From: Myxococcota bacterium
GTDB taxonomy: Bacteria > Myxococcota_A > UBA9042 > PHBI01 > JAWLBL01
Length of the DNA stretch: 64,000 bases
Reading direction: 5' to 3'
NCBI GenBank assembly: GCA_041687695.1
Contig: JAWLBL010000017.1
Span: 1 to 64,000 of the forward strand
Shown here in pieces: positions 11,766 through 64,000 of the stretch. Position 1 is the stretch's first letter; the number at the start of each line of letters is the position of its first letter. Below the pieces are notes generated by a model, which made no database searches, was not told the origin of the DNA, and saw only the letters and a program-made list of their open reading frames with translations. Both the position numbers and the translations under genes were made by a program.

Positions 11766-14700
11766 GGGGCGACCTCCAGGCGCTCGTCGGCGGCGCGGTC
11801 GAAGCAGTCGGAGAGGGCCGCGATCACCCGGGCGGGCGGGGCGTCGAAGAAGACGCCGAGGGGGCCAGCGCCGGGCGCCTCCGTGTCGCTCATGCCGCGG
11901 ATGAAAGCGTAGTAGGCGCCGCCGACGTGGGTGTCGTAGTCGTAATCGCGGATACGCGTGCGGAGATAACGGTGCAGGGCGACCAGATAGAAGTGGTACT
12001 GCAGGACGTAGTTGTGCCGCGCCATCTCGACTTCGAGGAAGTCGCGTCGGTAGTGGCCGGCGCGGGAGACGGCGCGAGCGCCGTCGGTGGGGCGCTGGCC
12101 GACGATGCGGTTGGTCTTGTAGTCGAGCACGTAGTAGCGGCCAACGCGGTCCCGGAAGACGAGATCGATGGAGCCGGTGAACCATCCGCGCATCGCGCCG
12201 AACCGCATCTCGTCCAAGCTGGCGAGGTAGCGCGACCAGAAGGGCGAAGGGTCGGCCCGCAGGTGCAGCGCGCGGCGGATCTCGTCGCCGTCGACCGTGC
12301 CGTACGCGCCGCCCGCGCGATGGGCGAGCGTGAAGTCGAACTGCAGCTCGTCGAGTCGCTCCGTCAGCGGCAGGTCGGCCAAGGCCAGGTCGCCGACCGG
12401 TCCGCCGAGCGGCGCGCGGAGGATGGACGGCAGCACGTCGGCCAACAGCTCGTGCTGCGCCGCGTCGGGGAAGCCGTTGCGGACACCCAGCGCGCCGATG
12501 AGCGCCAGGGCCTCGCGGCCCGCGGTCGGCGCGCCGGCGGCGTCCCAGGCGCGTTCACGCAGGGTGCCGTCGTGCGCCGGCCGGAAGTCGAGCTGTTCGA
12601 AGACGGCGTGGACCCAGGTGCCCGCCTCCTTGCCGCTGCGCAGCGTGTCGAGAGGGACGGGGTCCCCCTCGACAGGGCGGTCGGGCCACCGCCAGGCGTC
12701 GGTGAGGGCCGGCGCGTCGCCGTCGGTGTCCTTGGCGAGGGCGTCGGCGTCGGCGCCCACCTGGGGCGTCGGCTCGAGGGCGATGTCCTTGCCGCGGGTC
12801 AGGGCCGTGTAGGACAGGCGGCGCCAGGACAAGTCCAGGCCGTCGCGCTCGAAGACGCGGACCTCGTGCGTCGGCGAGGCGGCCGGGGTCGCGGGGCCTC
12901 TCCAGAGGACGGGCTGCCGTGGTGGCGGCTCGCAGTGAGCCAACGCGATGCGGCCTCGCGAAGTGGCGGCCAGTCGCTCCAGGTGATCGACGAGCGCCGC
13001 TCGTGCCGCGCTCACCGCGTCGGGATCCTTGCCGCCGAGGGCAGCTCTCACCGCGGCTTCCGCCCGCTCGCGGCGGGTAGGGGCGTCGCCCGGCGAGTCG
13101 CCGTGCAGCAGGTGGGCCAACGGCGAGCAGTCCGAGCCCGAGCCCCCTTTGCCGCCAGCCAGCCCCCAGTAGACGACGCATTGGTGGACCGCGCGAGTGA
13201 GGGCGACATACAGCAGCCGCAGGTTCTCCTCGTGCGCCTCACGCGCCGCGGCCTCGCGCAGGGCCATGCGTCGCGTGCTCTTGGTGTCCAGGCCCAGATC
13301 CAGCCGCACCGCGAAGCCGCCGTCGGCCAGGCGCTCGTGGTAGTGCAGCGGCGCGGTGCCATCGCGTCCCAGCCGGCTGCCGTCCCAGAAGAACGGCACG
13401 AACACGATGGGGTACTGCAGCCCCTTGGACTTGTGGACCGTCACGATACGGACCGCGTCGGCGTCGGTCTCGAGGCGAAGCTCGGCGCCCTCGCCGGCCT
13501 CCTCGCCCTTGTGGCGGCGTTCGCGCAGCCAGTGGAGCAGCCCCGCGGGAGAGAGCCGGTCCCGCAGCCAGGCTTGGTGCGCCAGCTCGGCCAGATGCCT
13601 GAGGTTGGTCAGGTGGCGTTCGCCGCCCTCCAGGGCCAGAAGGCGCGCCACGCCATCGCCACCGCCGTCGGTCTCGCGGTGCACGCGGTCCATCGGCGCC
13701 TCGGCGCCTTCGGCCGGCGCCTCGCAGCGCGGGTCGGCATCCGCCAGGGCGTGTTCCCAAGCGACGATGAAGCCGCGGGCCTCGAATCGCTCGCGCCAGC
13801 GGCGCACCTTGTCCATCCAGGCCGCCCAGCGGCGCTCGGCGGCGCCGTCGGTCTGCTGGCCGCCGTTGCTCGGCTGGCCGCCGGCGCTCCCACCGATCAT
13901 CTCGTCCGCCCGCCAGCCGAACAGCGGCGTCGCGGCCAACGCGCGGGCCGGGCCGTCCTTGCCGCGCTCGTCCAGGGCCGCCAGCCAGCGCTCGAGCCAG
14001 GTCGCCTCCTCGCTATCGTAGACACTCCCGGCCGAGGAGATGACGGCGGGGATGGCGCGATCGGTCAGCGCCCGGTGAAGCAGGCGAGCCTGTCGATTGG
14101 TGCGGACCAGGATGGCCACGTCGCCGGGTCCCGCCGGCCGGCGGCGGTCCTTGCCATCGCTCAGCGTCGGCGGCGCCTCGAGGAGATCGCGCACGTCGTT
14201 GGCCACGGTCTGGGTCAGCAGCCTCGTCGCCAGCCCCTTGCTCGGGGCCTTGTCGCGACCCGCCCAGTCACCGTCGAACCAGCGCAGCCCGAGCGGAGCG
14301 TCCAGTCCGGTCGGGGCGGCGGCGGGCCACTCGATGCGTTCGGGTTTGGCCGCGCCGACCTCGGGGAAGCCGATCGCGTCGTCGTCGACGAAGATCCCTT
14401 CGCGGTCCAGGTACAGCTGCCCGATCGCCTCGACGAGCGACGGGTCCGAGCGGTGATTGGTGTCCAGCGTGCAGCGGTCGGCGACCGAGTGGGCGGCGCC
14501 CCGGTACACGAAGATGTCCGCGCCGCGAAAGCCGTAGATGGCCTGCTTGGGATCCCCGATGAGGAACAGGTAGCGATCTCTTGCGAACACCGTTTCGAAG
14601 ATCGCCCACTGGACCGAGTCCGTGTCCTGGAACTCGTCGATGAGGGCCGCCTGGTAGGTCTCGCGCAGGGCGCGCGCGAGCTCGCCGTCGGCGCCGGTCG

Positions 14701-15823
14701 CGCGCAGGCGGTCGGCCACGCCCACCAGCAGGTCGTCGAAGGACATGGCGTTCTGGCGCGCCATGCGGGTTTGGAGCTGCTCGCGCGCATGGCGCGCGAA
14801 GTACAGCCGCATCGCCAGCGAGAGCCGCTGGGCCAGCAGTGGCAGCTCGACAAGCGCGTGCAGGACGGCCGGGATGGGCGGCAGCTGCTTGTTCTTGAGC
14901 GGGATCATGCGCTCGGGTGTGAGGCACTTCAGGTCGATGTCGCAGCCGATGGCCACGCCGGGTTCGGCCGTCAGCCAGGCGTCCACCTCGTCGATGCGCT
15001 TGTTCACTGTGGTTGGCCGGTAGCTTCTCTGGTCGAGGATCCGGCCTTCGGCGCAGCGAGCGAAGAACGCCTCGACCGCGTCGCGTCCCCCTCGGCGCCA
15101 GGCATCGGCGACCGGCCGGCTGGCCGCATCCCAGGCGGCCAGCACCTCGGGTCCGGACATGGGCGACACTGGCGCTTGCTCGCCGTCGTCGGCTTCGACC
15201 AACTCGGGCCCCAGCAGCGCGTCACGCGTGTGAGTGACGGCGCGCGCCAGCTTCAGCGCCTTGTCGCGATCGAGCCGGCACGTGTGAGCTACGAAACGCG
15301 CGAGGCGGACGTCCTGGTGGCGTTCGCGGCTGAGGAAGTCGTCGACGATCTCCTCGAGCAGGGCCGAGGTGTCCTCGAGGAGCGTCGCCTCGAGGCGAGC
15401 GCCGGCCTCGAAGGCGTGCTTGGCCAGCACGCGCTGGCAGAAGCCGTGGATGGTGAAGATCGAGGCGGCGTCGAAGCTCTCGGCCGCGACCCGCAGGCGG
15501 CGGGCGCGGCGGGTCCGCTCGTCGGGGGGGCAGTCCGCCAGCAACGCCAGGACCGCGTCTGTGCCGGGCTCTGGGCTCGGCGCGGTCAGCGCGTCCGAGA
15601 GGCGGCCCAGCTCGGCCCGGATGCGGGCGCGCAGCTCCGCCGTCGCCGCCTTGGTGAAGGTGACCACCAGGATGTCGGCGATGGGCAGGGCGGCCTCGGC
15701 GACCAGCCGCATCACGATGGCCGTGATGTTCCAGGTCTTTCCGGTGCCGGCGCTGGCCTCGAGCAGCACCGGACGGGGCGTCAGCGTACGGTCGATGCGC
15801 CAGGGGGCGAGTTGGTGGGTCAC
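11762..15823 (-). CDS. recB: Exodeoxyribonuclease V beta subunit
   Basis: EASAGTGKT, VTFTKAATAEL, DEFQDTD, IGDPKQAIYGFRGAD, TVHKSKGLQY, LLYVALTRA and nuclease motif GSIDL...LDYKTN. Confidence 0.95.
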   Translation of the reverse strand: MTHQLAPWRIDRTLTPRPVLLEASAGTGKTWNITAIVMRLVAEAALPIADILVVTFTKAATAELRARIRAELGRLSDALTAPSPEPGTDAVLALLADCPPDERTRRARRLRVAAESFDAASIFTIHGFCQRVLAKHAFEAGARLEATLLEDTSALLEEIVDDFLSRERHQDVRLARFVAHTCRLDRDKALKLARAVTHTRDALLGPELVEADDGEQAPVSPMSGPEVLAAWDAASRPVADAWRRGGRDAVEAFFARCAEGRILDQRSYRPTTVNKRIDEVDAWLTAEPGVAIGCDIDLKCLTPERMIPLKNKQLPPIPAVLHALVELPLLAQRLSLAMRLYFARHAREQLQTRMARQNAMSFDDLLVGVADRLRATGADGELARALRETYQAALIDEFQDTDSVQWAIFETVFARDRYLFLIGDPKQAIYGFRGADIFVYRGAAHSVADRCTLDTNHRSDPSLVEAIGQLYLDREGIFVDDDAIGFPEVGAAKPERIEWPAAAPTGLDAPLGLRWFDGDWAGRDKAPSKGLATRLLTQTVANDVRDLLEAPPTLSDGKDRRRPAGPGDVAILVRTNRQARLLHRALTDRAIPAVISSAGSVYDSEEATWLERWLAALDERGKDGPARALAATPLFGWRADEMIGGSAGGQPSNGGQQTDGAAERRWAAWMDKVRRWRERFEARGFIVAWEHALADADPRCEAPAEGAEAPMDRVHRETDGGGDGVARLLALEGGERHLTNLRHLAELAHQAWLRDRLSPAGLLHWLRERRHKGEEAGEGAELRLETDADAVRIVTVHKSKGLQYPIVFVPFFWDGSRLGRDGTAPLHYHERLADGGFAVRLDLGLDTKSTRRMALREAAAREAHEENLRLLYVALTRAVHQCVVYWGLAGGKGGSGSDCSPLAHLLHGDSPGDAPTRRERAEAAVRAALGGKDPDAVSAARAALVDHLERLAATSRGRIALAHCEPPPRQPVLWRGPATPAASPTHEVRVFERDGLDLSWRRLSYTALTRGKDIALEPTPQVGADADALAKDTDGDAPALTDAWRWPDRPVEGDPVPLDTLRSGKEAGTWVHAVFEQLDFRPAHDGTLRERAWDAAGAPTAGREALALIGALGVRNGFPDAAQHELLADVLPSILRAPLGGPVGDLALADLPLTERLDELQFDFTLAHRAGGAYGTVDGDEIRRALHLRADPSPFWSRYLASLDEMRFGAMRGWFTGSIDLVFRDRVGRYYVLDYKTNRIVGQRPTDGARAVSRAGHYRRDFLEVEMARHNYVLQYHFYLVALHRYLRTRIRDYDYDTHVGGAYYAFIRGMSDTEAPGAGPLGVFFDAPPARVIAALSDCFDRAADERLEVAP

Positions 15824-18800
15824 GCGGCACCTCCAGACTTGGCACTTCCGGCGCTCTTCGACGGGGCCGCCTCGGCCCTGGCACGCAGCATGGGAGTCCA
15901 GAGCCACTCGGCGAGGCGGGCGAAGCGCTCGGTCCGAGGGTCCGCTTGCGTCTCGAAGGGAGCGGTCAGCCCCCAGACCGCGGCGATGAACGGATCCTCG
16001 ACGTCCCCGGAGGCGGCATGATCGTGGTCCCCTGGCTCCCACGCTTCTATCGCGCCCTCGATGGCGCTGGCTCGCAACGCCTCGTCGGCGTCGTCCCAGG
16101 GACACTGCTCCTGGTACAGGCAAGTCGCGAGCGCTTGGGAGCTGGACATGAACAGAGGCAGCGGCTCGCACAGGCCGCGCGTGCGCTCCTCCAGCATCTG
16201 CGTCAGCAGCTCGCGCGCTGCGTCGGCGGCATCGGGGCCGCTCGGCGTCGGCAGTCGCAGCGCGAGCTCACACGCCCTGTCCCCGGCGTACCCGACCAGC
16301 CGAACGGTCAGAGGTTCGCCGGGCAGGCTGCACTGGGCGGCCAGCAGCAGCACCCACGCGCGGAGCAGGTGCTTGGGCCGGTCGATGTTGCTGGTCTGCA
16401 GGTAGAGCACGGTGTCGCCGCACACGTGATCGATCTGGCCGCGCAGCGTGACGCCGCCCAGTGGCAGCGAGACCTCGAGGGGCCGCGAGACGACCAGGTC
16501 GTCGCGGCACAGGTCGAGGATGGCTTCGACCTTGGCGCGTTGCTCTTCGAGAAAGTCGCCGGCGGCGGCGCCCAGCGGCAAGCGCCCCTCGGCTCGGAGG
16601 CGCCGGGCGGCTCTTTCCCAGGCCGCTCTCGGCTCGCGTCGCTCGAGCTCGGCGCGCACCCGCGTCTCCAGCAACGCGTTTCGGACGCTCCACGACGCGA
16701 GGTGGTCGAGCACGACGGGCTCGCGGTCCTGCAGCTCGTCGGTCCCGTCCCGCAGCCAGAGTTGCAGCCGCTCGCGCAACAGCTGGCGGGTCGGGTTCTC
16801 GAGGAAGCGCGTCAGCTCGTCCAGCGTCACCGAGGCCAGGTTGCCCTCGGGGGGGGGCAGCGTGCGTCCTCCGTCGAACAGCAGCGACCGGGGGCGGCGC
16901 TCGCCATCCATGGAGGCGCGGGCGGCGAGCAGGGCGCGGTCGAAGCTCCACGCGTGCCGCAGCCGCCCATCGACGGCGCCAGGTCGGAAGTTGGCGGTGC
17001 TGAAGGGCTGCAGCGGGTGGTGGACCAACAAGCGCCTGGACGGAGGAACGTTGTCCTCGCCCCAGACGAAGCGGGCGTCGATGGCCTCGAGCAGCTCGGC
17101 GACGGGGACCGCCGGGGGGATCTCTTCGGACGTGCGCACGTCGCGGCCCGAGTAGAGGACGAGGAAGTGATCACGCGCCGACAACAGCGCCTCGAGGAAC
17201 AGGTGACGGTCCTCGTCGCGGCCGTCGCGGTCGCCGGGGAGCGGACGTCGCGCGGTCAGGTCGAAGCTGGGGCGCTGTGGGCGGCGCGGGAAGGCGTCGT
17301 CGTCGAGGCCCAGCAAGCAGACCACCCGGAAGGGGACGCTTCGCATGGGTTGCAGGGCGCAAACCGTGACCGCGCCGGTGACCACCCGGTCGCCCTTGGC
17401 GGGATTGTCCATCTGCCCTTCGAGCAGCGCGCGCACGGCGGCGGCGGCGACCGGGCCGTCGTACAGCTCGCCCGAGCGCGTCAGGCCTTCGAGGACCTGC
17501 TGGACCTGCTGGGTCAGCCAGGCGGCCGCGTCCGACGGGGCGGTCACGGTCTCGATTGCGCGGGTCAGCTCGGTGGCCCACTCTGCCAGCGGGCGGGGGC
17601 GCCGCAGGCTCTTTCGGACCGCGAACAGGGTACGCAGCGCCTCGGCGAATCGGCCGAAGCGCCGCGCCCCGTCTCCTTCCATCGCGTCGACCGGCAGGAT
17701 GTCCTGCCACAGCGAGTCGCCGTCGTCGGCCATCACCACGCCGAGCGCCAGCCGGTCGAGGCCGAAGGCCAAGGTGTTGTGGCGATCGGCGGGCTGGTCG
17801 GCGGCCGCTCGCTCGGCCTCGTCCTCGGCCCACCGCATGCCCACGGTTCGGAGCCACTCACGAACCGCCTCGAGGTCCTCGGCGCCGAGGCCGAAGCGTC
17901 GCTGGACCGGGTCGATGGACAGCAGCTGGTCGACCGCGGTGACGGTCAGCCGCGCCTCGACCAGCTCGAGCAGCCGGATCAGCGCGTCGGCGACCGGGTT
18001 GAGGCGCCGCAGCCCGAGGTCGCTGATCTCGACCGGGATGGCAGGGGCTCCCGCCGTGCCCCAGGCCAGGTCGTCCCGGCGAGGCTCGCCGCCGCGCGTC
18101 CGGCGCCGCTCGGAACCGCGCGCGAAGGCCGCCTGGATGAGCGGCGCGTAGGTCTCGACGTCGGGCGTCATCACGACCACGTCGCGGGGCGACAGCGTGG
18201 GGTCGTCCTGGAACAGGTGCAGGAGGGCCTCGCGCAACGCATCGACCTGGCGGGCCGGCCCATAACACGCGTGCACGGAGACGGAGGTGTCGTCGGTCGA
18301 TGCGACGCGGCGCTCGGAGCCGGCGTGGGCGCGGTTTTCGACCAGGTCGTCCTGCAGTCGACGCAGCAGGCTCGGGCGAACGGGCGCGCCGGACGTCATC
18401 GAGAAGGCGTCGTGCTCGAAGGCCCCGTCGAGGCGGTCGAGCATCAGGATCTGCATCTCGCGCGACAGGCGCCCGAACGAGACGAGCAGCGGGTCGTGGG
18501 TCGCGGCCCCTTCGCGGACCTCCTCGTCGACCTCCTCGCGGGGCACGCGCTGCTCGACGACGCGCCTGGCCCAAGCCCTGCCGTCGCCGCGGGTGACGAG
18601 ATCGCCCAGGTAGTCGGCCGTGGCCGCCAGCATATAGAGGTGAACCGGAATCCGGCGGCCCAGGTCGGCCAGGATGCCGACGACGGCCGGGGCCAGCCGC
18701 GAGACCCCGAAGACGTGCAGGGCGTCGAGGGGCAGGGCCGACTCAGGCGCCGGGCGGCCCGCACGCAAGCCCGCGCGCAGCGCCTCGAGCCGCGCCGGGA

Positions 18801-19401
18801 AGTGGTGCTGGTCCAGGCGCTCCTCGAGAAGGCGCCACAGGTGCAGCTGCCACCCGCTGTCCTGCCAATCGGCGTCCGGCCGGCCCAGGAACCACTCGGG
18901 GCGCTCGTGGTGATAGCGGTCGAACAGATCGGCCACGGTCCGCGCGAACGCGAAACGCTGCTGGTCGACGACTCCGTCCGCCGCTGCGCCTCCAGCCTCG
19001 AGGGCCGACCACACCTCGTCCAGCTCGGGGGCGCCGGCGTGCGCGCGCAGCGCCTCCATCACGGCCCAGGTCAGCTGCTCGGGTTGCCATCGCTGGGCCA
19101 GGCGAGCGGCCTCGGGGTCGTGCAGCGTCCGCCCGAACCCTCGCTCGATGCGGGCCAACATGGGCGCGAGGAAGCGGCACGCGATGTTGGCCGAGATGTT
19201 CATGCGCTCGGCGATGGCGAGGCGCAGATAACGCTCCATGCCCCGGCTGCCCACCAGGATCTCGACCGGGCGCATGGGGTCGGCCGGAGGGGCCGCCCGC
19301 AGCTGCTCGGCCAGCGCGTCGGCCAGCGCTTCGACTCGGTTCGAGCGGTGAATCCAGACCCCCGGCATGACGGCCGAGGTCGGTTCGATGGATGGCGTCA
19401 T
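15820..19401 (-). CDS. recC: Exodeoxyribonuclease V gamma subunit
   Basis: SNRVEAL, DLFDRY, VHACYGPARQV, PRDVVVMTPD, PMRSVPFRVVCLLGL, DRHLFLEALLSAR and HPLQPF. GGAG RBS present. Confidence 0.95.
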   Translation of the reverse strand: MTPSIEPTSAVMPGVWIHRSNRVEALADALAEQLRAAPPADPMRPVEILVGSRGMERYLRLAIAERMNISANIACRFLAPMLARIERGFGRTLHDPEAARLAQRWQPEQLTWAVMEALRAHAGAPELDEVWSALEAGGAAADGVVDQQRFAFARTVADLFDRYHHERPEWFLGRPDADWQDSGWQLHLWRLLEERLDQHHFPARLEALRAGLRAGRPAPESALPLDALHVFGVSRLAPAVVGILADLGRRIPVHLYMLAATADYLGDLVTRGDGRAWARRVVEQRVPREEVDEEVREGAATHDPLLVSFGRLSREMQILMLDRLDGAFEHDAFSMTSGAPVRPSLLRRLQDDLVENRAHAGSERRVASTDDTSVSVHACYGPARQVDALREALLHLFQDDPTLSPRDVVVMTPDVETYAPLIQAAFARGSERRRTRGGEPRRDDLAWGTAGAPAIPVEISDLGLRRLNPVADALIRLLELVEARLTVTAVDQLLSIDPVQRRFGLGAEDLEAVREWLRTVGMRWAEDEAERAAADQPADRHNTLAFGLDRLALGVVMADDGDSLWQDILPVDAMEGDGARRFGRFAEALRTLFAVRKSLRRPRPLAEWATELTRAIETVTAPSDAAAWLTQQVQQVLEGLTRSGELYDGPVAAAAVRALLEGQMDNPAKGDRVVTGAVTVCALQPMRSVPFRVVCLLGLDDDAFPRRPQRPSFDLTARRPLPGDRDGRDEDRHLFLEALLSARDHFLVLYSGRDVRTSEEIPPAVPVAELLEAIDARFVWGEDNVPPSRRLLVHHPLQPFSTANFRPGAVDGRLRHAWSFDRALLAARASMDGERRPRSLLFDGGRTLPPPEGNLASVTLDELTRFLENPTRQLLRERLQLWLRDGTDELQDREPVVLDHLASWSVRNALLETRVRAELERREPRAAWERAARRLRAEGRLPLGAAAGDFLEEQRAKVEAILDLCRDDLVVSRPLEVSLPLGGVTLRGQIDHVCGDTVLYLQTSNIDRPKHLLRAWVLLLAAQCSLPGEPLTVRLVGYAGDRACELALRLPTPSGPDAADAARELLTQMLEERTRGLCEPLPLFMSSSQALATCLYQEQCPWDDADEALRASAIEGAIEAWEPGDHDHAASGDVEDPFIAAVWGLTAPFETQADPRTERFARLAEWLWTPMLRARAEAAPSKSAGSAKSGGAA

Positions 19402-19562: not shown

Positions 19563-20204
19563 GTGACGAGGATGAAGGCGATCGCCAAGGCCCTCCTGCT
19601 GAGGGAGTTGGGGTATGGGGGCTCGCTCGAGCAGGTCGAGCCCTTGCTCGAGGCGGCGGGGCTCAGCCGCGCTGGCAAGCCGAACATCGCGCCCGCCAAA
19701 GCGGCGGCGGTCGAGGCGCTGTTGGCCGCTCACTTCGTGCTCGTCTGCGGGCGTGGGGACTGCCGCGACACCGCCGAGAGCGAGCGGGGGACGCGTGCGC
19801 TGGCACCGGCCGCCAGCGAGGACGATTGCGCGGTCTGTGGTGGTTCCGCGACGCAGCGCGCCATCGAGGCGATGATCGCCGCCTGCTCCCAACGAGGCTG
19901 GAGGCGTCTGTGCGTCGTCGGCGGCTCGCCCAACGCCCGGGAGCGGCTCGAGTCCGGCGTCGCCGGCCGGGTCGAGCTGCGTTTGATCTCGGGCACCGAG
20001 CGACGCACCCGCTCCAGCGCCCAGGCCGACCTCACCTGGGCCGACCGCGTCGTCGTCTGGGGCAGCACGCAGCTCGACCATACCGTCAGCAATCACTACG
20101 CGGGCCGCAATGTGTCGAGCATAGCGCGGCGGAGCATTCAGGCCGTATGTGACGAAGTCGTCCGATGTGCCATGGGGGCGCGCAAGGGTGTCACTGTAGT
20201 CTGA
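19563..20204 (+). CDS. DUF2325-like protein with Cys-rich linker
   Basis: C-terminal LCVVGGS...ADRVVVWGSTQLDH resembles DUF2325, preceded by CxxxxC...CxxC. Confidence 0.65.
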   Translation: MTRMKAIAKALLLRELGYGGSLEQVEPLLEAAGLSRAGKPNIAPAKAAAVEALLAAHFVLVCGRGDCRDTAESERGTRALAPAASEDDCAVCGGSATQRAIEAMIAACSQRGWRRLCVVGGSPNARERLESGVAGRVELRLISGTERRTRSSAQADLTWADRVVVWGSTQLDHTVSNHYAGRNVSSIARRSIQAVCDEVVRCAMGARKGVTVV

Positions 20205-20477
20205 AGTCGTGCCCGCGAATTCCGCTCGTAGCCACGGGCGCACGAGGTGTCTGGGAGCGTGTGGACGCAGCGGACCTCGGTCGTGCGCGAGACGGCTGTC
20301 GGCGATGAACATCGCTTCTCCTGGGGCCAGGACCACCGGGGCAAGCTGAGCGTCCCAGCCCGGGTCACTGGAGGCCACGGCACGCGCGATGCGCGCCGCG
20401 TCGCAGCCTGTGGGCAGAGCGTGCGAGCGCCGCGCGGCGGCGGCGAGGTCGACCGACAGAGTGGACGAGCCAGTCAT
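20205..20477 (-). pseudogene. Possible remnant of a TauD/TfdA-family dioxygenase C-terminus
   Basis: VLAPGEAMFIADSRLAHDR..PRHLVRPWL resembles LxPGDxxxxxNxxxxHxR..RHLxRxWL. GGAG RBS precedes the ATG at 20477, and there is no stop before the frame runs antisense into the neighbour. Confidence 0.4.
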
Positions 20478-20553
20478 GACGGACTCCTGAAGAGAGGCCC
20501 GCCCTCGCGGAACGGGCTGCGGGCGCGGAGACCGTCTCCGCGCGCCAGGAGGC

Positions 20554-20856
20554 TCACGCCGCCCGGAAGCGGCGGAACATCGTCGCGGCATCGCAGCGAT
20601 AGGCTGCCACGACCTCCGTGCCGGTCGGGTCGACGACGGCGGCGATCTCCAGCGCGCAGGTCACCGCGAGGCCCCGCCCCTGGGCGACGCCGGCCGCCAC
20701 CGGATCCATGTAATAGATGACCTCGCCGGAGGGCAGCGGCCATACGCGTCCGTAGGCGACGGCGAGGTGCACCTGGGAGACGCGGATGTTGCGTTCGGCG
20801 CAGCGGGCGGCGGCGTGAGCGCTGAGACGGAGACGGTCGGGGTGGGGGCGCGACAT
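20554..20856 (-). CDS. DUF4258-like small protein
   Basis: LSAHAAARCAERNI..VHLAVAYGR pattern, followed by beta-strands ending VVAAYR; 100 aa. Confidence 0.7.
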   Translation of the reverse strand: MSRPHPDRLRLSAHAAARCAERNIRVSQVHLAVAYGRVWPLPSGEVIYYMDPVAAGVAQGRGLAVTCALEIAAVVDPTGTEVVAAYRCDAATMFRRFRAA

Positions 20857-20892
20857 GGGGTCCCTGTCGAAGCGGGTTCGGGCGACGACGTA

Positions 20893-21410
20893 GCGAGGCG
20901 GGCGCGCGAAGCGAGCTGACAGATGTGCTTCACCTTTCGGGGGCCGGGTGCACAGGCGGGGTCGAACCGGTGTGGCCGGGCGAACGGAGTGCTGGCAGCG
21001 TCGACTGGGCCATGTTCTGTCGAGCCGAGCGCGAGGCGGGGTCCGACAGATGTGCTTCACCCTTCGCGGTCGGGCGCACAGGTCGAGGCAATCCGCCGTG
21101 GTGGCGCGAACGGCCATGTCGGTGGGAGTCGTGAGGTCCATGCCCTGTCGAGTCGGTCGCGCGTCAGGTTCGGACAGAAACGCTGCAAGGGTCGTGACCG
21201 GGGCGACGAGGCGGAGGTCGTTCGCGGAAGGGGCGGACGGCCATCTCGGCCATGTTGGTGAGGGGTGCTACGTCCATGGTCCGTTGGGTCGGTTCCGCGT
21301 CGGGTTCTGGCGGATGCGCTGCCATGGGCGTGACCGGGGCGCCGAGGCGGACGGTCGTTCGCGGGTGGAGCGGACGGCCATCTCGGCCATGTTGGTGACG
21401 GTCGTGAGCT
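20893..21410. repeat. Two pairs of degenerate direct repeats in a long non-coding region
   Basis: gacagatgtgcttcacc occurs at ~20918 and ~21045 (127-bp period). A ~80-bp unit ending gcggacggccatctcggccatgttggtga occurs at ~21181 and ~21317 (136-bp period). Confidence 0.8.
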
Positions 21411-22391
21411 CCAGGCCCCGTCGAGCCAATCGCGGGTCGCCGGCTGACAGCAGCCGGCGAGACCGCAGCCGTCTGGGCGAAGACCCTGATGCTTTCGTAT
21501 GGAAGCGCTTCATCGATCGAGGTCTGTGCGCCGAGCCGGCGCTGCGGGCGAGTAGGTGCGGACGACCTTGCAAGCGAGCGTCTGCAAGGGCCATGACCGG
21601 TCGAGTCGGTCGCGAGTGGCCGTATGACACAAGCGCTACGTCGGTCGCGCCTGAGGCGCCGAGGACAAGGAGGTGCGGCGCAGTGCGAAGAGGACCTGCT
21701 GGCGGGATGTCGTAGGGCCAAGCCCTCGTCGAGCCGGCGCTCCGTTGGGTCGCGAGCATGGGGCCGAGGCGCAGGCGCTCGAGAGCGAGCGACGGACCGA
21801 CCGGCGGATGAGAGTCGAAGAGGCCCTGGCTGGTCGAGGCGGCTGGGGTCTGGACCTGTGACAGACGGGCTCTCGGCAGCTGTCGCCTGGGCGCCGAGCC
21901 CGCTGAGGTCTATCGTGGCGGCGTTCAGAGCGCGGGACCCTGGGTCGAGGGTGGAGGACGAACGAACCCCGGGGGGGACCGCCGCAAGCCTGATGAACCA
22001 GGAGCGGCCAGGATTCCGAAGGCGCAGCGACAGGGGCGCCGCGCCGACTTCTGGAGCAACTGTCAGACCATCGGTCCGTGAGGGCTCTACGTGAACGGCG
22101 GCCGGGGGGCAGGCAAGGGGCCCGCTCAACGACCTGGCCGCGAGCTCCACCGCCACGGGGCAGCCGCGAAGGGTGCGATGGCCCGGGCGCTCGGGTTCCC
22201 GCTTGGCAGGCAAGTGGGATGCGGTCCAGAAGCTCCAACAGAGGAAGCGCTCACCAGCGCGTCGCCTGGTCGGCGTGGGTTCGGCGGGCAAGGCACCAGA
22301 ACCAAGCGACGCGCAGCATCCAACGCTCGCGTGGCCCCCGTTGCGGGCGGCCCCGGGATGGCCCTAGCCTGAGGGCGTCGCAGGAGGCGAC

Positions 22392-23684
22392 ATGGATGGA
22401 ACAGGTCTGAAGCCTGAACGGAGGTACGTCGCGGTGCGCCGTGGCCGCGGGACGGTCGGAGAGGACGACGTCGAGGTCGACGCCGAGGCGCTCGAAACCC
22501 TGAGGCGAAAGGAAGCCGATGCTCGGCGGGCCTGCGGAGCGGTCATGAGTCAGGAAGGGACGCGAGAGGAGCTGGACGCGCTCGGCTTGGCCGAGGTCAC
22601 GGTGGGGTGCTCGTTCGCCCAGCCCGAGGGCCCCGCCGAGTCGATCGCGCGTGAGCGGGGGGGCAGCGTCGCCGACGTGGGCGACCCGGAGGCCTGGGCC
22701 GCGCCTGCGCCGATCGCGCCGCGGAGCGAACGGGCCTGGTCCACCCTCGGTCGCGCGTGCCACGACGGACGCTGGTTCGTCGCGCGTGAGCGGGGGGCCG
22801 GCGTCGCCGGTGTGGGCGACCCGGAGGCCTGGGCCGCGCCTGCGCCGATCGCGCCGCGGACCGGACGGGCCCGGTCCACCCTCGGACGTGCCTGCCACGA
22901 CGCGCGCTGGGCCGTCGTGCATCCGGCCGAGCCGGGGCGGGCCATGCACGTGCACCACGAGCGAGGGCTGCCTGGTCTACGCTGCGCGGACGATGAGGTG
23001 TGGACGGGCACAGCCGCGTCGCGCTCAGCGGTGACCGCGTTCCTCGACGACATCGGCCTCGGCATCGGCCCCCATGCTGGCGTGGCCGGGGTCGTTGCGG
23101 GTCCCGTGGACCTGGCTCCGCTGTCCGCCCCCGGCCCGCTCGAGCTGTTCGCGCGCGCCGAGGCCTGGCGCGCCGGGCTCTACGGCGAGGGGCTGGTGAC
23201 GCCGGCGCGCGAGCGGCTGGCGGTCGGGGATGAGTGGGCGCAGCTCGTCGCCGCTGGGCAGGTCGTCAGGCAGGGGGCGAGGGACGAGGGCGCCTCAGGC
23301 GAAGCGGTGGCCGCGCAAGTCTCGGCGAGATCGTCGGACGCGCGGGCGAGCCAGGCCGCTTCGGCGCGCCTCCGGGTGGCCGTGTCCGATCGCCAGGAGG
23401 CCCACGCGAGCGGGGCGACCTCGGCCGCACGGCACGAGGCCGTCCGGCACCAATCGCTGGTTGCCGTGTCTTACGCGCGCGCCGACCTCGCGAGGTTGGC
23501 GCTGCTGCTCGAGTCGGGGGACGGCGGGGACGCGGTCGCTCCAGCGCTGGCGGCGCTCGACGAGCTCGGCGAGACTTGGACTCGTGCGCTGCCCAGCGTT
23601 CTCGAGATCGTAGACGATGAGCGCCTGCTGCGCGCCTTGGTGGCGAGCCCGATGGGTTGGTCGACGGAGTCGGTTCGATGGTGA
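22392..23684 (+). CDS. Hypothetical protein with in-frame 45-aa tandem duplication
   Basis: AGGAGG RBS; 135-bp duplication at 22645-22914; its stop overlaps the next ATG (TGATG). Confidence 0.65.
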   Translation: MDGTGLKPERRYVAVRRGRGTVGEDDVEVDAEALETLRRKEADARRACGAVMSQEGTREELDALGLAEVTVGCSFAQPEGPAESIARERGGSVADVGDPEAWAAPAPIAPRSERAWSTLGRACHDGRWFVARERGAGVAGVGDPEAWAAPAPIAPRTGRARSTLGRACHDARWAVVHPAEPGRAMHVHHERGLPGLRCADDEVWTGTAASRSAVTAFLDDIGLGIGPHAGVAGVVAGPVDLAPLSAPGPLELFARAEAWRAGLYGEGLVTPARERLAVGDEWAQLVAAGQVVRQGARDEGASGEAVAAQVSARSSDARASQAASARLRVAVSDRQEAHASGATSAARHEAVRHQSLVAVSYARADLARLALLLESGDGGDAVAPALAALDELGETWTRALPSVLEIVDDERLLRALVASPMGWSTESVRW

Positions 23685-25453
23685 TGAGCGTCGTCGGGAT
23701 CCCGGTGGGGTCCACACGAGCGAGCCAGCGGCGCAAGCTGGAGCGCGTGCTCGGGGCTGGGCCCTGGTGCTGGCCCGAGGACGCCGAAGCTCGGGCGTGG
23801 CTGGCCGCGTTGGGGCTGGTCTGTCCGCCGGCCGTGGTGGTCGGGCAGGTGCCGCTGGTCGCGGTCGGCCCGGCGGGCGGCTCGCTGTGGTCCCTGGGAG
23901 GGGCAGGGGAGGGCTGCGTCACCGTGGGGTTCGGGCCCGAGGCCGAGCGCGCGTGGGCTCGGGCCGGGCGCGCGCTGGCCCGGGCCCTGCCGGTGGCGTG
24001 GCGATCGCTGCGCGACGCGGTGCAGGCGATGCCTCGCGCGACGTACCTGGGGCAGTCGGTGGTGCCCCACCAGGCCGAGCGGCCCGAGCCGCTGCTGGAC
24101 GGCGCGTCGTTCGGGTTGGCGTTCGCGATGGCGCTGACCTCGCGCGTGACGGGGCGCGCCCTGGCGGGCGACTGGGCGGCCAGCGCGTGCGTGGACGAGG
24201 AGGGGTGCCTCGGGCCGGTCGACGGCCTCGAGCAGAAGCTGCAGGTCGTGACGACGCAAGCGCCGCAGGTGGCGCGCTTCCTGGTCGCCGAGTCGCAGCG
24301 GGACGAGGCCGAGGCGCTCTCGGAGGGACGCGGCCTCCAGGTCGTCGGCGTCGCGACGCTCGCTCAGGCGCTGGTCGAGCTCGCGCCCGATCTCGAGCAG
24401 TGGATGGTCGACGTGGCGCGTCCCGAGTCGAGGCGCGAGCGCGTGGAAGCCATCCACCGGCTTGCGCTGGGCGGGCGGGCGGCGCTGGTCGAGTGGGCGC
24501 CGGTGGGGCGAGCGGCGGCGCGCATGCTGGCCGCCTGGTCGGACCTGACGCCCGAGCTCGCGGCGATGTTGCGGTTCGCCGAGAGCGTGGCCGCACGCCA
24601 TCAGGGGCTGCGGCGGCCCCAACCGCTGCCGACCCAGGCGGTGCTGGCCACGTTGCCGCAGCCTCATCGGACGCGAACGGTGGCGCACGCGGTGCAGAAC
24701 GCGGCCGACGCGGGCTGCGACGACCTCGACGCCCTCGAGGCGCTGGCGCGGGCGTACGCGCCCGAGGCGCTCGCGGACTGCTTCCCCGCCCAGCTCGAGC
24801 TGCGGGGTGCGCTGGCGAGGCTGTGGGCGGTCACCGGGCGCCCGCGAGAGGCCGCCCTGGCGCAGCTGGCGCTCGCCGCGGCCTGGACGGACCGTGGCGA
24901 CAGCGCCGAAGGGACCTACAACCTCAGCGAGCTGTTTCGGCTCGCCGGAGCGCTGCGGGACGAGTTCCTCTTCGCCTCCGCCGAAGCGGCACGCGATCGC
25001 GCCGCCACCCTCGGCGAGCTGAACCGGCTCGGGGGGGACCCCTATGTCCACGTCGCGCGTGGGCGCGCCTTGACCTTGCTGGGCCGCCACGCCGAGGCGG
25101 CCGCTGTGCTCGAGCCCTGGGGAACGCGCGCCGACCTCCCCGACCACCTGCGGCTCATGGCCCTCCGTTGGCGCGTCCGCTCCGGGCGATGGCTCGCCCG
25201 AGACGCTGGCCAGCCCATCCACGAAGAGGCGCTGGCAGCCGGGTCTCCGCGCGGCTCGCACCTGACTCGGCGCGTCCGGGCCCTGGTCGAGCTCGACGCA
25301 GCCCTGTTCGCCGGGGACACCGACGGCGCGACCCAGGCCGTGGACGCGCTGGCCGTCATCGAGCCGCAGCCGCTCTCACAGCTCCGCCGCGCCTGGCGTC
25401 CAGAGCTGTGCTCTGACCCGCTCGACTACGTCGCGCGCTTCTACCCCTACTGA
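23684..25453 (+). CDS. ATPase-less Lon (S16) protease domain fused to a helical/TPR-like C-terminal region
   Basis: LDGASFG...ASACVDEEGCLGPVDGLEQK. Ser (24107) and Lys (24236) are 43 residues apart, as in the canonical Lon of this window. Confidence 0.8.
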   Translation: MSVVGIPVGSTRASQRRKLERVLGAGPWCWPEDAEARAWLAALGLVCPPAVVVGQVPLVAVGPAGGSLWSLGGAGEGCVTVGFGPEAERAWARAGRALARALPVAWRSLRDAVQAMPRATYLGQSVVPHQAERPEPLLDGASFGLAFAMALTSRVTGRALAGDWAASACVDEEGCLGPVDGLEQKLQVVTTQAPQVARFLVAESQRDEAEALSEGRGLQVVGVATLAQALVELAPDLEQWMVDVARPESRRERVEAIHRLALGGRAALVEWAPVGRAAARMLAAWSDLTPELAAMLRFAESVAARHQGLRRPQPLPTQAVLATLPQPHRTRTVAHAVQNAADAGCDDLDALEALARAYAPEALADCFPAQLELRGALARLWAVTGRPREAALAQLALAAAWTDRGDSAEGTYNLSELFRLAGALRDEFLFASAEAARDRAATLGELNRLGGDPYVHVARGRALTLLGRHAEAAAVLEPWGTRADLPDHLRLMALRWRVRSGRWLARDAGQPIHEEALAAGSPRGSHLTRRVRALVELDAALFAGDTDGATQAVDALAVIEPQPLSQLRRAWRPELCSDPLDYVARFYPY

Positions 25454-27018
25454 GCCCCGGTCGGCACCAGCTCGACCCACGCGTGCCGCCTGGCGTTCGC
25501 CTCGGACCAGAAGCGCTTCTTGGCATCCGGGCCGCCATTCTCGACCAGCGCCCGCTCGAAGCTGGCGTCGGCGCCGAACGCACGCAATACGACCTTGTTG
25601 GGGTTGGGTATGGCCTCGAGTACGGCCACCATCTCGGTGCCGGCGTGGTCCACCGCCACGAGGGGCGCCAGGTTCAGGGCTCGGCCCGACGGCCGATCGA
25701 GCAGGACGCAGGTCTTGGAGGGCAGCAGACCGCGCCAACGCTCCAGATGCGGCCACGGCTCGCGCTCCTTGCCCCTGAACACGGTCCAATGGCCGCACAG
25801 GATCTCGTCCTCCAAGACTTCGACGGTGGGGACCTCGAGCAGCTCGTACCTCGCCAGCCACCGCAACGTGTTCAGATACTCCCGAAGGTGGTGCTCCAGC
25901 TGCTCGGCCGCGGAGCGAGTCGCCGCCGCCGAGCCGCCGAGCCGCCCGTGCGCGACGGCGTTGCGCAGCCCGACCAGGGAGACCGCGAGTTGGCGTGGCG
26001 AGGGGCCGACGCTGGGGTTCAGCCACGCTCCCAACTCGGCGAAGAAGGGGCTGGGCGCCGTCCGAGCCGCGAGGAGCTCGGCCAACCCGTCTACCGCCTT
26101 GCTCAGGTCCCCCAGCGTCGGCTTGCGCAGCGCCTTCACCAACGCCAACGCGCGCGCGTCGCATGGCCCGGCCAGGTAGTCGGCCAGCAGGAACGACGTC
26201 ATCGTCCGAAAGACGGCCTCGAGCGCCGGCTTGAGCCGCTGGATCCGCTGCTCGGGTCCGACGCTCCGGAGCACGGTGTGCCAGGGATAGGCAAGCGGGA
26301 AGGGCAGGTGCTGGGTCAGCCAGGCGTCGGCTCCCGCAGGCGACCGCGCGTTCGCGCTCCCAATGTCCTCGACCTCGCCTCTGGGTTCGCTCGATGGGAC
26401 CGCTGCCTCCGATGGTCTGGGTGGCTTCGCGGGACGAGGCCTCACCTCTCGAGCGAGCCCGGGGGCGGAGCAAGCCTCCTTGAGCGCCTCGGCAAACGCC
26501 CGGGCGCGCCTGCGGTCCTCGCCGACGCAGACGTACAGGCGCTCGACCGCAGGTCCCGGGATCCGCAGCGCCGACACCGCGCCCTCGCAGAACGCCTCGA
26601 ATCGCCTGCGGTCATCCTCGGGCCGCGCCGCCGGCTCGAAGAGCGGCACGGCGACGCTCGACGCGCTCCACTTGCGCGCCTCCTGCACCATGCTGCTCCC
26701 CGCCCGTCGCAGCGCCTCTCGGATGGCCATCTCTCGGGCGGCGTCGGGGGCACCCGCGCCCCCACGCCACTCCAAGCAGTAGTCCACCCAGAAGCTCCCG
26801 GCGCGCGTCCGCCGCGTCCGCACGACGGCGTCGCCCGGGCACTGCGGGATCTCTTTGGCCCCCGGCGCGCACCCAGCCTCCTCGCCGGCTCTCGGCGCCT
26901 GGAAACGCTCGACCAGCTCGTCCAGGTTCGCGAAGAAGCGCACCACGGCCACCGCCCCCACGGCGTCGGGCCCGCGGCTCGTCATCCGAATCGTCGTGGC
27001 CCCGATCTCCAGCCCCAT
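25447..27018 (-). CDS. Divergent Macro-like domain plus helical domain with HEPN-type RxxxxH motif
   Basis: N-terminal GDAVV...SSVAVPLF...VERLYVCV has Macro-like topology. The C-terminal part has LPFPLAYPW, KPTLG and LVGLRNAVAHG. Confidence 0.6.
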   Translation of the reverse strand: MGLEIGATTIRMTSRGPDAVGAVAVVRFFANLDELVERFQAPRAGEEAGCAPGAKEIPQCPGDAVVRTRRTRAGSFWVDYCLEWRGGAGAPDAAREMAIREALRRAGSSMVQEARKWSASSVAVPLFEPAARPEDDRRRFEAFCEGAVSALRIPGPAVERLYVCVGEDRRRARAFAEALKEACSAPGLAREVRPRPAKPPRPSEAAVPSSEPRGEVEDIGSANARSPAGADAWLTQHLPFPLAYPWHTVLRSVGPEQRIQRLKPALEAVFRTMTSFLLADYLAGPCDARALALVKALRKPTLGDLSKAVDGLAELLAARTAPSPFFAELGAWLNPSVGPSPRQLAVSLVGLRNAVAHGRLGGSAAATRSAAEQLEHHLREYLNTLRWLARYELLEVPTVEVLEDEILCGHWTVFRGKEREPWPHLERWRGLLPSKTCVLLDRPSGRALNLAPLVAVDHAGTEMVAVLEAIPNPNKVVLRAFGADASFERALVENGGPDAKKRFWSEANARRHAWVELVPTGAQ

Positions 27019-27156
27019 CCCGGCGGTCCCCCTTCAGGTCGCGTCCGCCAGTCTCGTCCGACGCCCGGAAGTCCGTCAACGCGTTCGCTCGGCTTCCGGG
27101 TTGGTCGTCCGTCCCGGCCGCGCTATACGACCCCCATCCCCCACCACGAGGCATCC

Positions 27157-27516
27157 ATGCGACCGACCATCTGGCACAACCCCCGCTGCAGCAAGTCCCG
27201 CGAGACGCTGACCCTGCTCCGCGAGCACGGGCTCGAGCCCGAGATCCGCAAGTACCTCGAGGACCCGCCCGACGCGGCGACCCTCGCCCAGGTCCTCGAC
27301 CTCCTCGGCCTCGAGCCGCGCGACCTCATGCGTCGCAAGGAGCCCCTCTACGCCGAACTCGCCCTCGACGACCCGACCCTCACGCGCGAGGCGCTCATCG
27401 ACGCCATGACCCGCCACCCGGTCCTCATCGAGCGTCCGGTCGTCCTCGTCGGCGACCGCGCCGCCCTCGGCCGCCCACCCGAGCGCGTTCTCGCCGTCCT
27501 GCCCCCCAAGGACTGA
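27157..27516 (+). CDS. arsC: Arsenate reductase (glutaredoxin-type, ArsC family)
   Basis: HNPRCSKSR, LIERPVV and GRPPE. Confidence 0.92.
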   Translation: MRPTIWHNPRCSKSRETLTLLREHGLEPEIRKYLEDPPDAATLAQVLDLLGLEPRDLMRRKEPLYAELALDDPTLTREALIDAMTRHPVLIERPVVLVGDRAALGRPPERVLAVLPPKD

Positions 27517-27576
27517 ACCGCCCGCCCATGGCGTCCCTGCCGGAGGGGAGGGACGCGGAGCGCTACCGTCTCTCGG

Positions 27577-27648
27577 GTTGGGACTCGGGAGGTCCGGGGC
27601 CGCCCTACTTGGGACCTTACTTGGGACCCCGGCTCCCGACTTGGGACC
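27577..27648. repeat. ACTTGGGACC direct repeats (x3 plus one degenerate), possible integrase arm-type sites
   Basis: Copies at 27607, 27619 and 27639, with degenerate GTTGGGACTC at 27577; 60-130 bp from the tRNA 3' end. Confidence 0.6.
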
Positions 27649-27677
27649 TCGGGGCCCGGAGCCTGGGCTTCGAAAGA

Positions 27678-27708
27678 CGAAAAGCCCAGGGGTTACCTGG
27701 GCTTTTCG
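27678..27708 (-). terminator. Hairpin/terminator downstream of tRNA-Gly
   Basis: CGAAAAGCCCAGG-ggtta-CCTGGGCTTTTCG is a perfect 13-bp stem. Confidence 0.75.
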
Positions 27709-27783
<75 letters not shown>

Positions 27784-27863: not shown

Positions 27864-28022
27864 CCAGAAAAATGAGCGAGGCGCGAAGCTGGCTCGTTGT
27901 CCCCAGTGATGACGCGCCAGCGGGTCGCGTGGGACGCGGCCCGGCCCGGAGGGCGACCCCGCTCTGTGCCGTCGAAGGCCTGAGGCGGGGAGGGCGAACG
28001 TCTGGAGGCCAGGGAGGCGGTG

Positions 28023-28214
28023 GCCGACCTGGTGAGGGGGCTGTTGGAGGCCTTCGAAACGATGAAGGGCCGGCGCCAAGGCCGACCCTTCGAGGTGCGG
28101 TGCGTCAGGGGCGGCAGGGAGGCGGCGGCCGACCTCGTGAGGGGCCGCTGGGGCCTTCGAAACGACGAAGGGCCGGCGCCAAGGCCGACCCTTCGAGGTG
28201 TGGTGCGTCAGGGG
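28023..28214 (-). repeat. Tandem duplication (~104-bp period) of a terminator-containing segment downstream of the kinase gene
   Basis: Hairpin gaagggccggcgccaaggccgacccttc plus cgaaacga appears twice. Confidence 0.8.
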
Positions 28215-28218
28215 CCGC

Positions 28219-62474: not shown

Positions 62475-64000
62475 TCAGTGCACGGCAGCCGGCTTGGTCG
62501 CCGGGGCGGCCTCTTCCTTCTCTTCGCCGCCGCCGAGCAGGATGTTCAGCAGCGGATCGTCCGCGCGCTTGGCCCCCTCGACCACCGGCACCGCGATGTC
62601 CCTGGTCAGGGCCAGGGCGATGACGTCGTCCATGTGGCGCACGGTCACCAGCTTGATGGCGCTACGCACGGCGGGCGGGATGTCGCGGATGTCCTTTCGG
62701 TTCTCGTCGGGCATGACGACCGTCTTGACGCCGGCTCGGTGTGCCGCCAGGACCTTCTCCTTGAGACCGCCGATGGGCAGGACGCGCCCGCGCAGCGTGA
62801 TCTCGCCCGTCATGGCCACGTCCATGCGCACCGGCACGCGGGTCAGCGCGCTGACCAGGCTGGTCGCCATCGTGATGCCCGCCGAGGGCCCGTCCTTGGG
62901 GATGGCGCCTTCGGGGAAGTGGATGTGGACGTCGATCTTCTTGTGGAAGTTCTCGGCGAGCCCCCACATGTAGGCCTTCGAGCGCACGTAAGACAGCGCC
63001 GCGTGCGCCGACTCCTCCATGACCTTGGCCAGGTTGCCCGTCAGCTTGAGCTGACCCGAGCCGGGCATCAGCGAGACCTCGGTCGTCAGCAGCTCTCCGC
63101 CGGCCGCCGTCACCGCGAGTCCGTTGGTCACGCCCACCTCGTCGGTGTCCTCGGCGCGTCCCATCCGGAACCGCGGCGGGCCGAGGTACGACTGCACCTT
63201 GGCCGAGTTCACGCGGAAGTGGATGTCCTTGTCGTCGCGGCCCTCCTGGCGGAAGCCGATGACGTCCTTGGCCATCTTCCGGCTGACGCTGGCGACCTCG
63301 CGCTCGAGGTTACGGACGCCGGCCTCCTTCGTGTACCGGTGCACGATGGTGCGGATGGCCGACTCGGTCCATCGCGCGTCGATCTCCTGGATGCCGTTGG
63401 CCTCGGCCTGCTTGGGGATGAGGTAGCGCCGGGCGATGTTGACCTTGTCGTACTCGGTGTAGCCCGAGATCTGGATGATCTCCATGCGGTCCTGCAGCGG
63501 CGCGGGGATGCCGTGCAGGCTGTTGGCCGTCGCGATGAACATGACGTCCGAGAGATCGTAGTCGAGGTCGAGATAGTGATCGTTGAACGTCGCGTTCTGC
63601 TCCGGGTCGAGCACCTCGAGCAGCGCGCTCGACGGGTCACCGCGGAAGTCCATCGACATCTTGTCGATCTCGTCGAGCAGGAAGACCGGGTTGTTCGAGC
63701 CGGCCTTCTTGAGGCTCTGGATGATCTTGCCGGGCAGGGCGCCGATGTAGGTCCGGCGGTGGCCGCGGATCTCGGCCTCGTCCCGCATGCCGCCGAGGGA
63801 CAGGCGCACGTACTTGCGGCCCGTGGCGCGCGCGATGGAGCGGGCCAGTGACGTCTTACCGACGCCCGGCGGCCCGACGAAGCACAGGATGGGGCCGTTG
63901 AGCTTCTTCACGAGGTGCTGGACGGCCAGGTACTCGAGGATGCGCTCCTTGGCCTTCTTGAGCCCGTAGTGGTCCGCGTCGAGGATCTCCTCGGCCTCGT
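62475..64000 (-). CDS. lon: ATP-dependent Lon protease (5' part outside the window)
   Basis: [33 protein letters not shown] and IGGLKEK. Confidence 0.98.

Follow-up and report, generated by a model that had tools for sequence, protein, structure and literature searches.

What might a Lon-type protease do when it carries no ATPase module, is fused to a solenoid of tetratricopeptide repeats (TPRs), and is encoded by a gene whose start codon overlaps the stop codon of the gene before it? This question is raised by a pair of genes, here called partner and Lon-TPR, within the first 64,000 nucleotides (nt) of contig JAWLBL010000017.1 from a Myxococcota bacterium (hereafter the window). In other Myxococcota, this pair forms the end of a conserved operon that consists of a DUF3800-like gene, a gene for a sigma factor like those of the extracytoplasmic function (ECF) class, the partner gene, and the Lon-TPR gene, in that order. 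In the genome examined here the module is in two pieces, with partner and Lon-TPR in the window and with the DUF3800-like gene, the sigma factor gene, and a sister copy of the partner on contig C35. On balance, we favour a mechanism in which TPR-gated cleavage of an anti-sigma partner by Lon-TPR would free the sigma factor.

The protease half of the Lon-TPR protein retains the Ser-Lys dyad of Lon enzymes. Its Ser142 (in DGASFG) and Lys185 (in GLEQK) are separated by 43 residues, a spacing that recurs in the housekeeping Lon encoded near position 62894 of the window and in two further Lon paralogues. Each of the two residues is kept in 111 of the 112 rows of a homologue alignment, and because of this conservation the protease appears to be under selection for catalysis. 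A pattern check found no Walker A motif in the 589-amino-acid (aa) protein, and there is no AAA+ module. Single-sequence Pfam matches fall below the cut-off (Lon_C, E 0.033; TPR_4, E 0.0027), and the family profile matches the protease domain of E. coli Lon with E 5.6e-14. The AlphaFold model, with a predicted local distance difference test (pLDDT) score of 87.0 and a predicted template modelling (pTM) score of 0.81, contains only the protease domain and helical repeats. Residues 47-237 of this model superimpose on LonA with Z 19.3 and a root-mean-square deviation (rmsd) of 2.5 over 167 aligned residues, and a Foldseek search with the model returned Lon domains alone.

The remainder of the protein (residues 241-589) is composed of 20.9% Ala, 14.0% Leu, and 12.3% Arg, and is wholly helical in the model from residue 247 to 586. 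Over residues ~243-580, the fold matches are to TPR proteins, including Rap-Phi105 (Z 13.9, rmsd 5.4, 300 aligned), MalT domain III (Z 13.2), RapH (Z 12.4), AimR, and NprR, where Z values of 11-14 are, by the fold-search tool's own caution, commonplace among helical repeats. No Pfam match to SAVED was found in the protein, and its match to the SAVED-containing protease CalpL covers only residues 53-236. Several residues of the solenoid are almost or entirely unvarying in the same alignment, namely R305 and R379 (112/112 each), H306 (110/112), and R495 (invariant), and the C-terminal P588 and Y589 are kept in 108 and 106 of the 112 rows. Because these arginines are invariant and the terminal Pro-Tyr is kept, the solenoid probably carries a conserved, ligand-binding surface. 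The initial annotation of this locus had described two open reading frames (ORFs) overlapping by TGATG, the second of which encodes an ATPase-less Lon core with its Ser and Lys 43 residues apart and a TPR-like helical tail standing where SAVED would be, and had proposed the Lon fold as a check; each of these points is borne out, since both ORFs and their overlap are present (Table 1) and the protein profile, the dyad, and the model agree. An in-frame ATG at 23678 offers an alternative start for Lon-TPR. Beyond this locus, a word-based search yielded eight homologues, and a profile built from them retrieved 599 representatives (50% clustering, E up to 1e-30). The nearest Atlas clusters are commonest in Myxococcota, Planctomycetota, and Thermodesulfobacteriota, and these serve as leads only.

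Table 1. Coordinates of the two pieces of the module, given in window positions unless a contig is named.
Feature	Position	Strand	Remarks
AGGAGG 5′ of partner ORF	22382-22387	+	
Partner gene ORF	22392..23684	+	430 aa; predicted anti-sigma / protease-substrate family; N-terminal beta domain and C-terminal helical bundle
In-frame tandem duplication inside partner gene	22645..22914	+	2 × 135 nt (45 aa), 90% identity
TGATG stop/start overlap, partner to Lon-TPR	23682..23686	+	suggests translational coupling
Lon-TPR gene	23684..25453	+	589 aa; ATPase-less Lon (S16) domain fused to TPR solenoid ending F-Y-P-Y
Lon proteolytic domain	23822..24403	+	residues ~47-240; Ser142 codon 24107-24109, Lys185 codon 24236-24238
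TPR-like helical solenoid	24416..25450	+	predicted sensor; conserved R305, H306, R379, R495, P588, Y589
DUF3800-like gene, ECF-like sigma gene, intact sister partner	C35:74581-77407 (L001 8582-11411)		no protease downstream; located by profile searches

The operon emerges from a survey of 401 genomes sampled from Myxococcota, a phylum assignment taken from the label of one homologue. Lon-TPR is present in 37 of these, and flanking sequences were taken for all 36 besides the genome examined here. A partner gene lies directly upstream of Lon-TPR in 30 of the 36 loci (29 by script, plus L043, which is below the overlap threshold yet adjacent), and overlaps of 1-8 nt, like the TGATG of the window, occur in many of them. 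Among the remaining loci, the partner is adjacent on the opposite strand in one (L064) and absent in four, and one is not judgeable. In genome G011 the Lon-TPR gene is split over two contigs, such that its N-terminal piece was counted and L069 was omitted from the order count. Directly before the partner there is a sigma-family gene in 29 of 31 loci, and in 18 the sigma gene is itself preceded by one that is DUF3800-like. The partner and Lon-TPR are also found as natural fusion proteins (P0154, 939 aa, and P0088); the P0154 cluster holds three members of 939 aa from JGI, NCBI, and ENA, and the fusion is present in several assemblies. Of the 401 genomes, 41 have the partner, and 32 of these also belong to the 37 with Lon-TPR. 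There are 13 partner loci without a Lon-TPR match, and the sigma gene precedes the partner in 12 of them. What follows the partner at these loci is a Lon-CARF gene (L076, L077), a contig-truncated Lon (L082), a gene for a NACHT protein (L072), or, in nine cases, unrelated genes. The partner is therefore tied more tightly to the sigma factor than to the protease, yet to the protease too, as the fusions attest. The co-occurrence and the neighbouring sigma factors that the initial annotation had suggested looking for are both present, but its picture of a two-gene module gives way to one of three to four genes.

The sigma factor assignment draws on several lines of comparison. Pfam Sigma70_r2 (PF04542) matches 8 of 26 members of the family (best E 1.3e-05), and the family profile matches sigma factors in the PDB (best E 0.0032); no Pfam match to sigma region 4 was obtained among the members. 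The family has a conserved RHxRxRxxL helix, which we take to resemble sigma region 4.2. The C35 sigma factor has no Pfam match when searched alone and scores 88 bits against the family profile. The DUF3800-like proteins match Pfam PF12686 weakly and in 3 of 16 members (best E 3.7e-04), and share an acidic DESG motif in which D10, E11, and G13 are invariant, as is D275 elsewhere in the protein. PMC12669027 describes DUF3800 as a nuclease with an RNase H fold.

In the mechanism that we favour, the TPR solenoid would hold the protease off until a trigger binds. Most likely this trigger would be a peptide or a protein, for instance one produced by a phage or under stress, because the solenoid resembles peptide-binding TPR proteins of the Rap/MalT type and because the genome examined here has no Cas10. 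Specifically, no match to the Cas10 palm or to Cas1 was obtained in this genome, which is 99.27% complete, under conditions in which positive controls were detected. The partner would bind and inhibit the sigma factor. Its cleavage and then, as with CalpT, probably its proteolysis by the host would free the sigma factor and turn on a defence or stress regulon, and the DUF3800-like RNase H-fold protein would act as an optional effector. The module thus conceived probably serves as an immune or stress alarm. Alternatively, the partner might act on the protease, as its inhibitor or adaptor, and not be an anti-sigma factor; the substrate would then be either the DUF3800-like protein or the sigma factor itself. 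The natural fusions and the coupling of partner and Lon genes are consistent with such a role, and there is a precedent in Haliangium, where a PCaspase, held by PCi, cleaves PCc-sigma (10.1101/2023.06.23.546230). However, because pairs of sigma factor and partner persist without a downstream protease in 9 of 13 loci, a sigma-binding role fits the partner better than a Lon-inhibiting one, and we regard the inhibitor or adaptor role as unlikely.

The cassette of DUF3800-like, sigma, and partner genes also stands in front of proteins with other candidate sensors. Lon-CARF genes follow it at L076 (6684-7985) and L077 (274-1662), whose products match the PADLOC model CARF_m2--CARF_LON with E 1.7e-37 and 2.6e-16, respectively, and the Lon domain of the L077 protein belongs to the same subfamily as Lon-TPR (99 bits). 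By eye, the nucleophile position of the L076 protein seems to read Thr. At L072 (2530-8268), a 1913-aa NACHT protein is encoded behind an extended partner of 504 aa. A Lon-like Ser...Lys motif with a spacing of 43 was seen by eye in the N-terminal part of this NACHT protein, but neither of two Lon profiles picked it up. At L079 (8747-12676) the cassette takes a variant form, with a DUF3800-like/TPR protein of 696 aa, a gene product of 390 aa, and a short partner.

CRISPR-type genes (cas6, cmr, Cas10, Csx1, Csx20) are located beside at least 7 of the 36 loci (L038, L044, L054, L059, L064, L066, and G011), a lower bound in that the 132 proteins scanned were mostly the nearest among ~350 ORFs in the flanks. 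Cas10 was matched strongly in 12 of the 36 other genomes with Lon-TPR. Some individual arrangements are unusual. At L064 (1320-6336), the DUF3800-like, sigma, and partner genes are divergent from Lon-TPR, which heads a Csx1-cmr operon. At L084, Lon-TPR is seen without a partner (the upstream sequence is missing) and is followed by the BREX genes brxE, brxA, and brxB, and at L067 it is likewise seen without a partner and is preceded by a gene for a DEAD-box helicase.

Several observations speak against the proposed cascade or its role in immunity. No similarity of the partner profile to known anti-sigma factors, CalpT, or Csx30 was found in the PDB. The count of adjacent partners is partly circular, because 29 of the loci counted went into training the partner profile; support independent of this training comes from L064, L083, L071-L082, and the two fusion proteins. 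The link between partner and Lon-TPR is not obligatory, given that 4 of 36 Lon-TPR loci are without a partner and 9 of 13 partner loci are without a downstream protease. Distance correlations are uninformative, being 0.29 for sigma and partner, 0.31 for sigma and Lon, and 0.29 for partner and Lon. Finally, no CRISPR gene is present in the scanned flanks of 29 of the 36 loci, and the case for defence is drawn from a minority of the loci, from patchy distribution (37 of 401 genomes), and from analogy.

Another explanation accepts the cascade but gives it a role in signalling outside immunity, by a cell-cell peptide, an envelope cue, or a developmental cue, with the solenoid acting like an RRNPP peptide receptor. 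The top TPR matches, among them Rap-Phi105 with its peptide, MalT domain III, RapH, AimR, and NprR, agree with this explanation, as does the lack of a CRISPR neighbour at most loci. In addition, neither PADLOC nor NCBIfam holds a model covering the TPR form, the partner, the sigma factor, or the nuclease. However, the fold-match scores lie in the range common to helical repeats, and the variants with CARF sensors, the CRISPR-adjacent loci, the BREX genes at L084, and the DUF3800-like gene all suggest conflict systems. A purely non-immune function is thus, in our estimation, quite unlikely.

How the switch would operate in the genome examined here depends on what has become of its two halves. 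A six-frame profile search of this genome found one Lon-TPR gene (that of the window), one sigma gene of the family, one DUF3800-like gene, and two partner genes, and a profile search of the window found no sigma or nuclease remnant. No Cas7-11 was seen among the ORFs called at 10000-34000 of the window, where no search aimed at Cas7-11 was made. The two partners are sisters in the tree (support 0.99) but are only ~36% identical, and the branch to the window copy is 2.3 times as long as that to the C35 copy (1.34 versus 0.59). Against the hidden Markov model of the family, the window copy scores 54 bits and its C35 paralogue 205 bits. The window copy is longer at the N-terminus than its family by ~51 residues, retains 22 of the 35 conserved columns (third lowest of 41, with a tie), and is without W311, W424, and several Leu residues, which makes it the sole member of the 41 without the last Trp. 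These features suggest a copy that has diverged and is decaying, which is likely rather than proven because other members of the family score as low (27-64 bits). An alternate database copy of the window locus differs by three residues in the partner and one in the protease, too few to weigh.

The fold given for the window partner is taken over from the model of the C35 copy, which has a beta domain (residues ~1-145) and a helical bundle (residues ~155-335) with pLDDT 88.6. A flexible A-x-G loop around residues 35-42 of that copy, where pLDDT is ~50, is a speculative candidate for the site of cleavage. Fold searches with the partner gave nothing clear: there was no Foldseek match at E 0.001, the best Z was 7.3, and the best Atlas score was 0.84. 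These searches list generic helical bundles only, and the beta domain was barely probed by them.

Because the window partner appears to decay, the C35 copy of the partner, encoded next to the sigma gene, is the likely functional substrate in this genome. The intact Lon-TPR would then act in trans on the partner-sigma pair of C35 while the adjacent partner copy decays. The simplest history would begin with a duplication, after which complementary losses left a single working set divided between two loci. A broken operon, with its protease now cut off from any sigma factor, would likewise account for the missing sigma and nuclease genes of the window and for a partner that has lost conserved residues, carries an internal duplication, and is so divergent from its sister, but such a relic is very unlikely given that the protease has retained 108 of the 124 conserved columns (against a median of 104 in the family) with a third-position GC content of 0.91, that it is the sole Lon-TPR of a 99% complete genome retaining an intact sigma-partner pair, and that genomes G028 and G184 likewise hold a separate sigma-partner pair in addition to a full operon.

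The surroundings of the window pair have features of their own. The pair lies inside a block of orphan genes (19563-27783) between genes at 11762-19401, which their motifs suggest to be recBCD-like, and a tRNA-Gly gene (27709-27783) that may be an insertion site. An ARAGORN call of a tRNA-Pro (12727-12817) falls inside the RecB-like ORF and is probably spurious. Upstream of the pair, a degenerate array of ~127-137-nt repeats with 61-76% identity (20894-21735) is unique in the genome and is located immediately 5′ of a DUF4258-like gene that lies on the minus strand at 20554-20856 (Pfam E 0.002). This gene has homologues in the vicinity of L040, L046, L056, and L061, four other Lon-TPR loci that have no such repeats. 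On the minus strand, an ORF of 523 aa (25447-27018) converges on and overlaps the Lon-TPR stop codon; it has no Pfam, PADLOC, or NCBIfam match and no homologue in this genome or in the fetched loci. Two direct repeats of 103-105 nt (92%) were also seen downstream of a kinase gene, at 28010-28218.

A literature search returned papers on CalpL, Csx29, and SAVED-CHAT together with reviews, and no description of a Lon-TPR module, with subscription journals mostly outside its scope and supplementary tables outside it. The triggered proteases that free sigma factors (CalpL, Csx29, and PCaspase) have so far been characterized as CRISPR ancillaries. The Lon-TPR family is large, is mostly not linked to CRISPR, and combines one protease with exchangeable sensors. 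The family offers a candidate ligand-gated, ATP-independent protease, a candidate new family of anti-sigma factors, and a testable route to an infection-triggered transcriptional response in bacteria without cyclic nucleotides. The split arrangement described here provides a test by nature of whether the module can act in trans. More tentatively, and with chances that we would put somewhat below even, the module could be a third, independently assembled immune switch running from protease to anti-sigma to sigma factor. Such a switch would be a portable cassette built on one Lon subfamily with interchangeable sensors, in which TPRs would sense proteins directly, CARF would sense CRISPR second messengers, and NACHT might possibly be a further option; it would mostly operate without CRISPR, and here in trans between half-operons.

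Among known systems, the closest parallel is CalpL-CalpT-CalpS, in which a degron becomes exposed on cleavage and the sigma factor is released by host proteases, and in which CalpT is described as a MazF-like domain joined to DUF2080 (both from 10.1101/2024.05.08.593097). Both CalpL and Lon-TPR are ATPase-less Lon proteases with a Ser-Lys dyad, and the Lon-TPR model matches CalpL (7qda) with Z 10.5 and rmsd 2.5 over 124 aligned residues. Both systems also place a protease, a middle gene, and a sigma factor of the ECF-like kind in one operon, with the exception that the sigma factor of the genome examined here is on C35. However, Lon-TPR has a TPR solenoid where CalpL has SAVED, the partner is not detectably related to CalpT in the PDB profile search, the gene order is sigma, partner, and protease with a frequent fourth DUF3800-like gene, and this genome is without Cas10 or Cas1. 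In the Csx29-Csx30-CASP-sigma system, as outlined in PMC10028731, a TPR-regulated endopeptidase has an anti-sigma substrate and is accompanied by a sigma factor. The TPR regulatory region on the protease is thus shared, which is a likeness in kind with no claim of homology to the TPRs of Csx29. Csx29 is a CHAT/caspase-type protease rather than a Ser-Lys Lon, and the same PDB search gave no similarity between the partner and Csx30.

Other comparisons are more distant. The Lon domain of the window protein matches the PADLOC model for CARF_m2--CARF_LON (PDLC01981) with E 1.6e-05 over residues 146-221 only, but the window protein has TPRs where that family has CARF. The SAVED-CHAT / PCaspase / PCc-sigma cluster of Haliangium ochraceum, also of the Myxococcota, resembles the present module as a protease-and-sigma defence cluster (10.1101/2023.06.23.546230), whereas its caspase-type proteases, SAVED sensor, and kinase all lie outside that module. 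Lon-TPR shares the Lon protease-domain fold (Z 16-19) with the housekeeping enzymes LonA and LonB and with BrxL, but is without their AAA+ module. Moreover, BrxL is without the dyad, according to PMC12839542, whereas the Lon-TPR family keeps it. Taken together, these comparisons make it likely that the module works like CalpL-CalpT-CalpS and Csx29-Csx30-CASP-sigma but belongs to neither of them, nor to CARF_LON, because it has no SAVED or Cas10, no CHAT, and no CARF, respectively.

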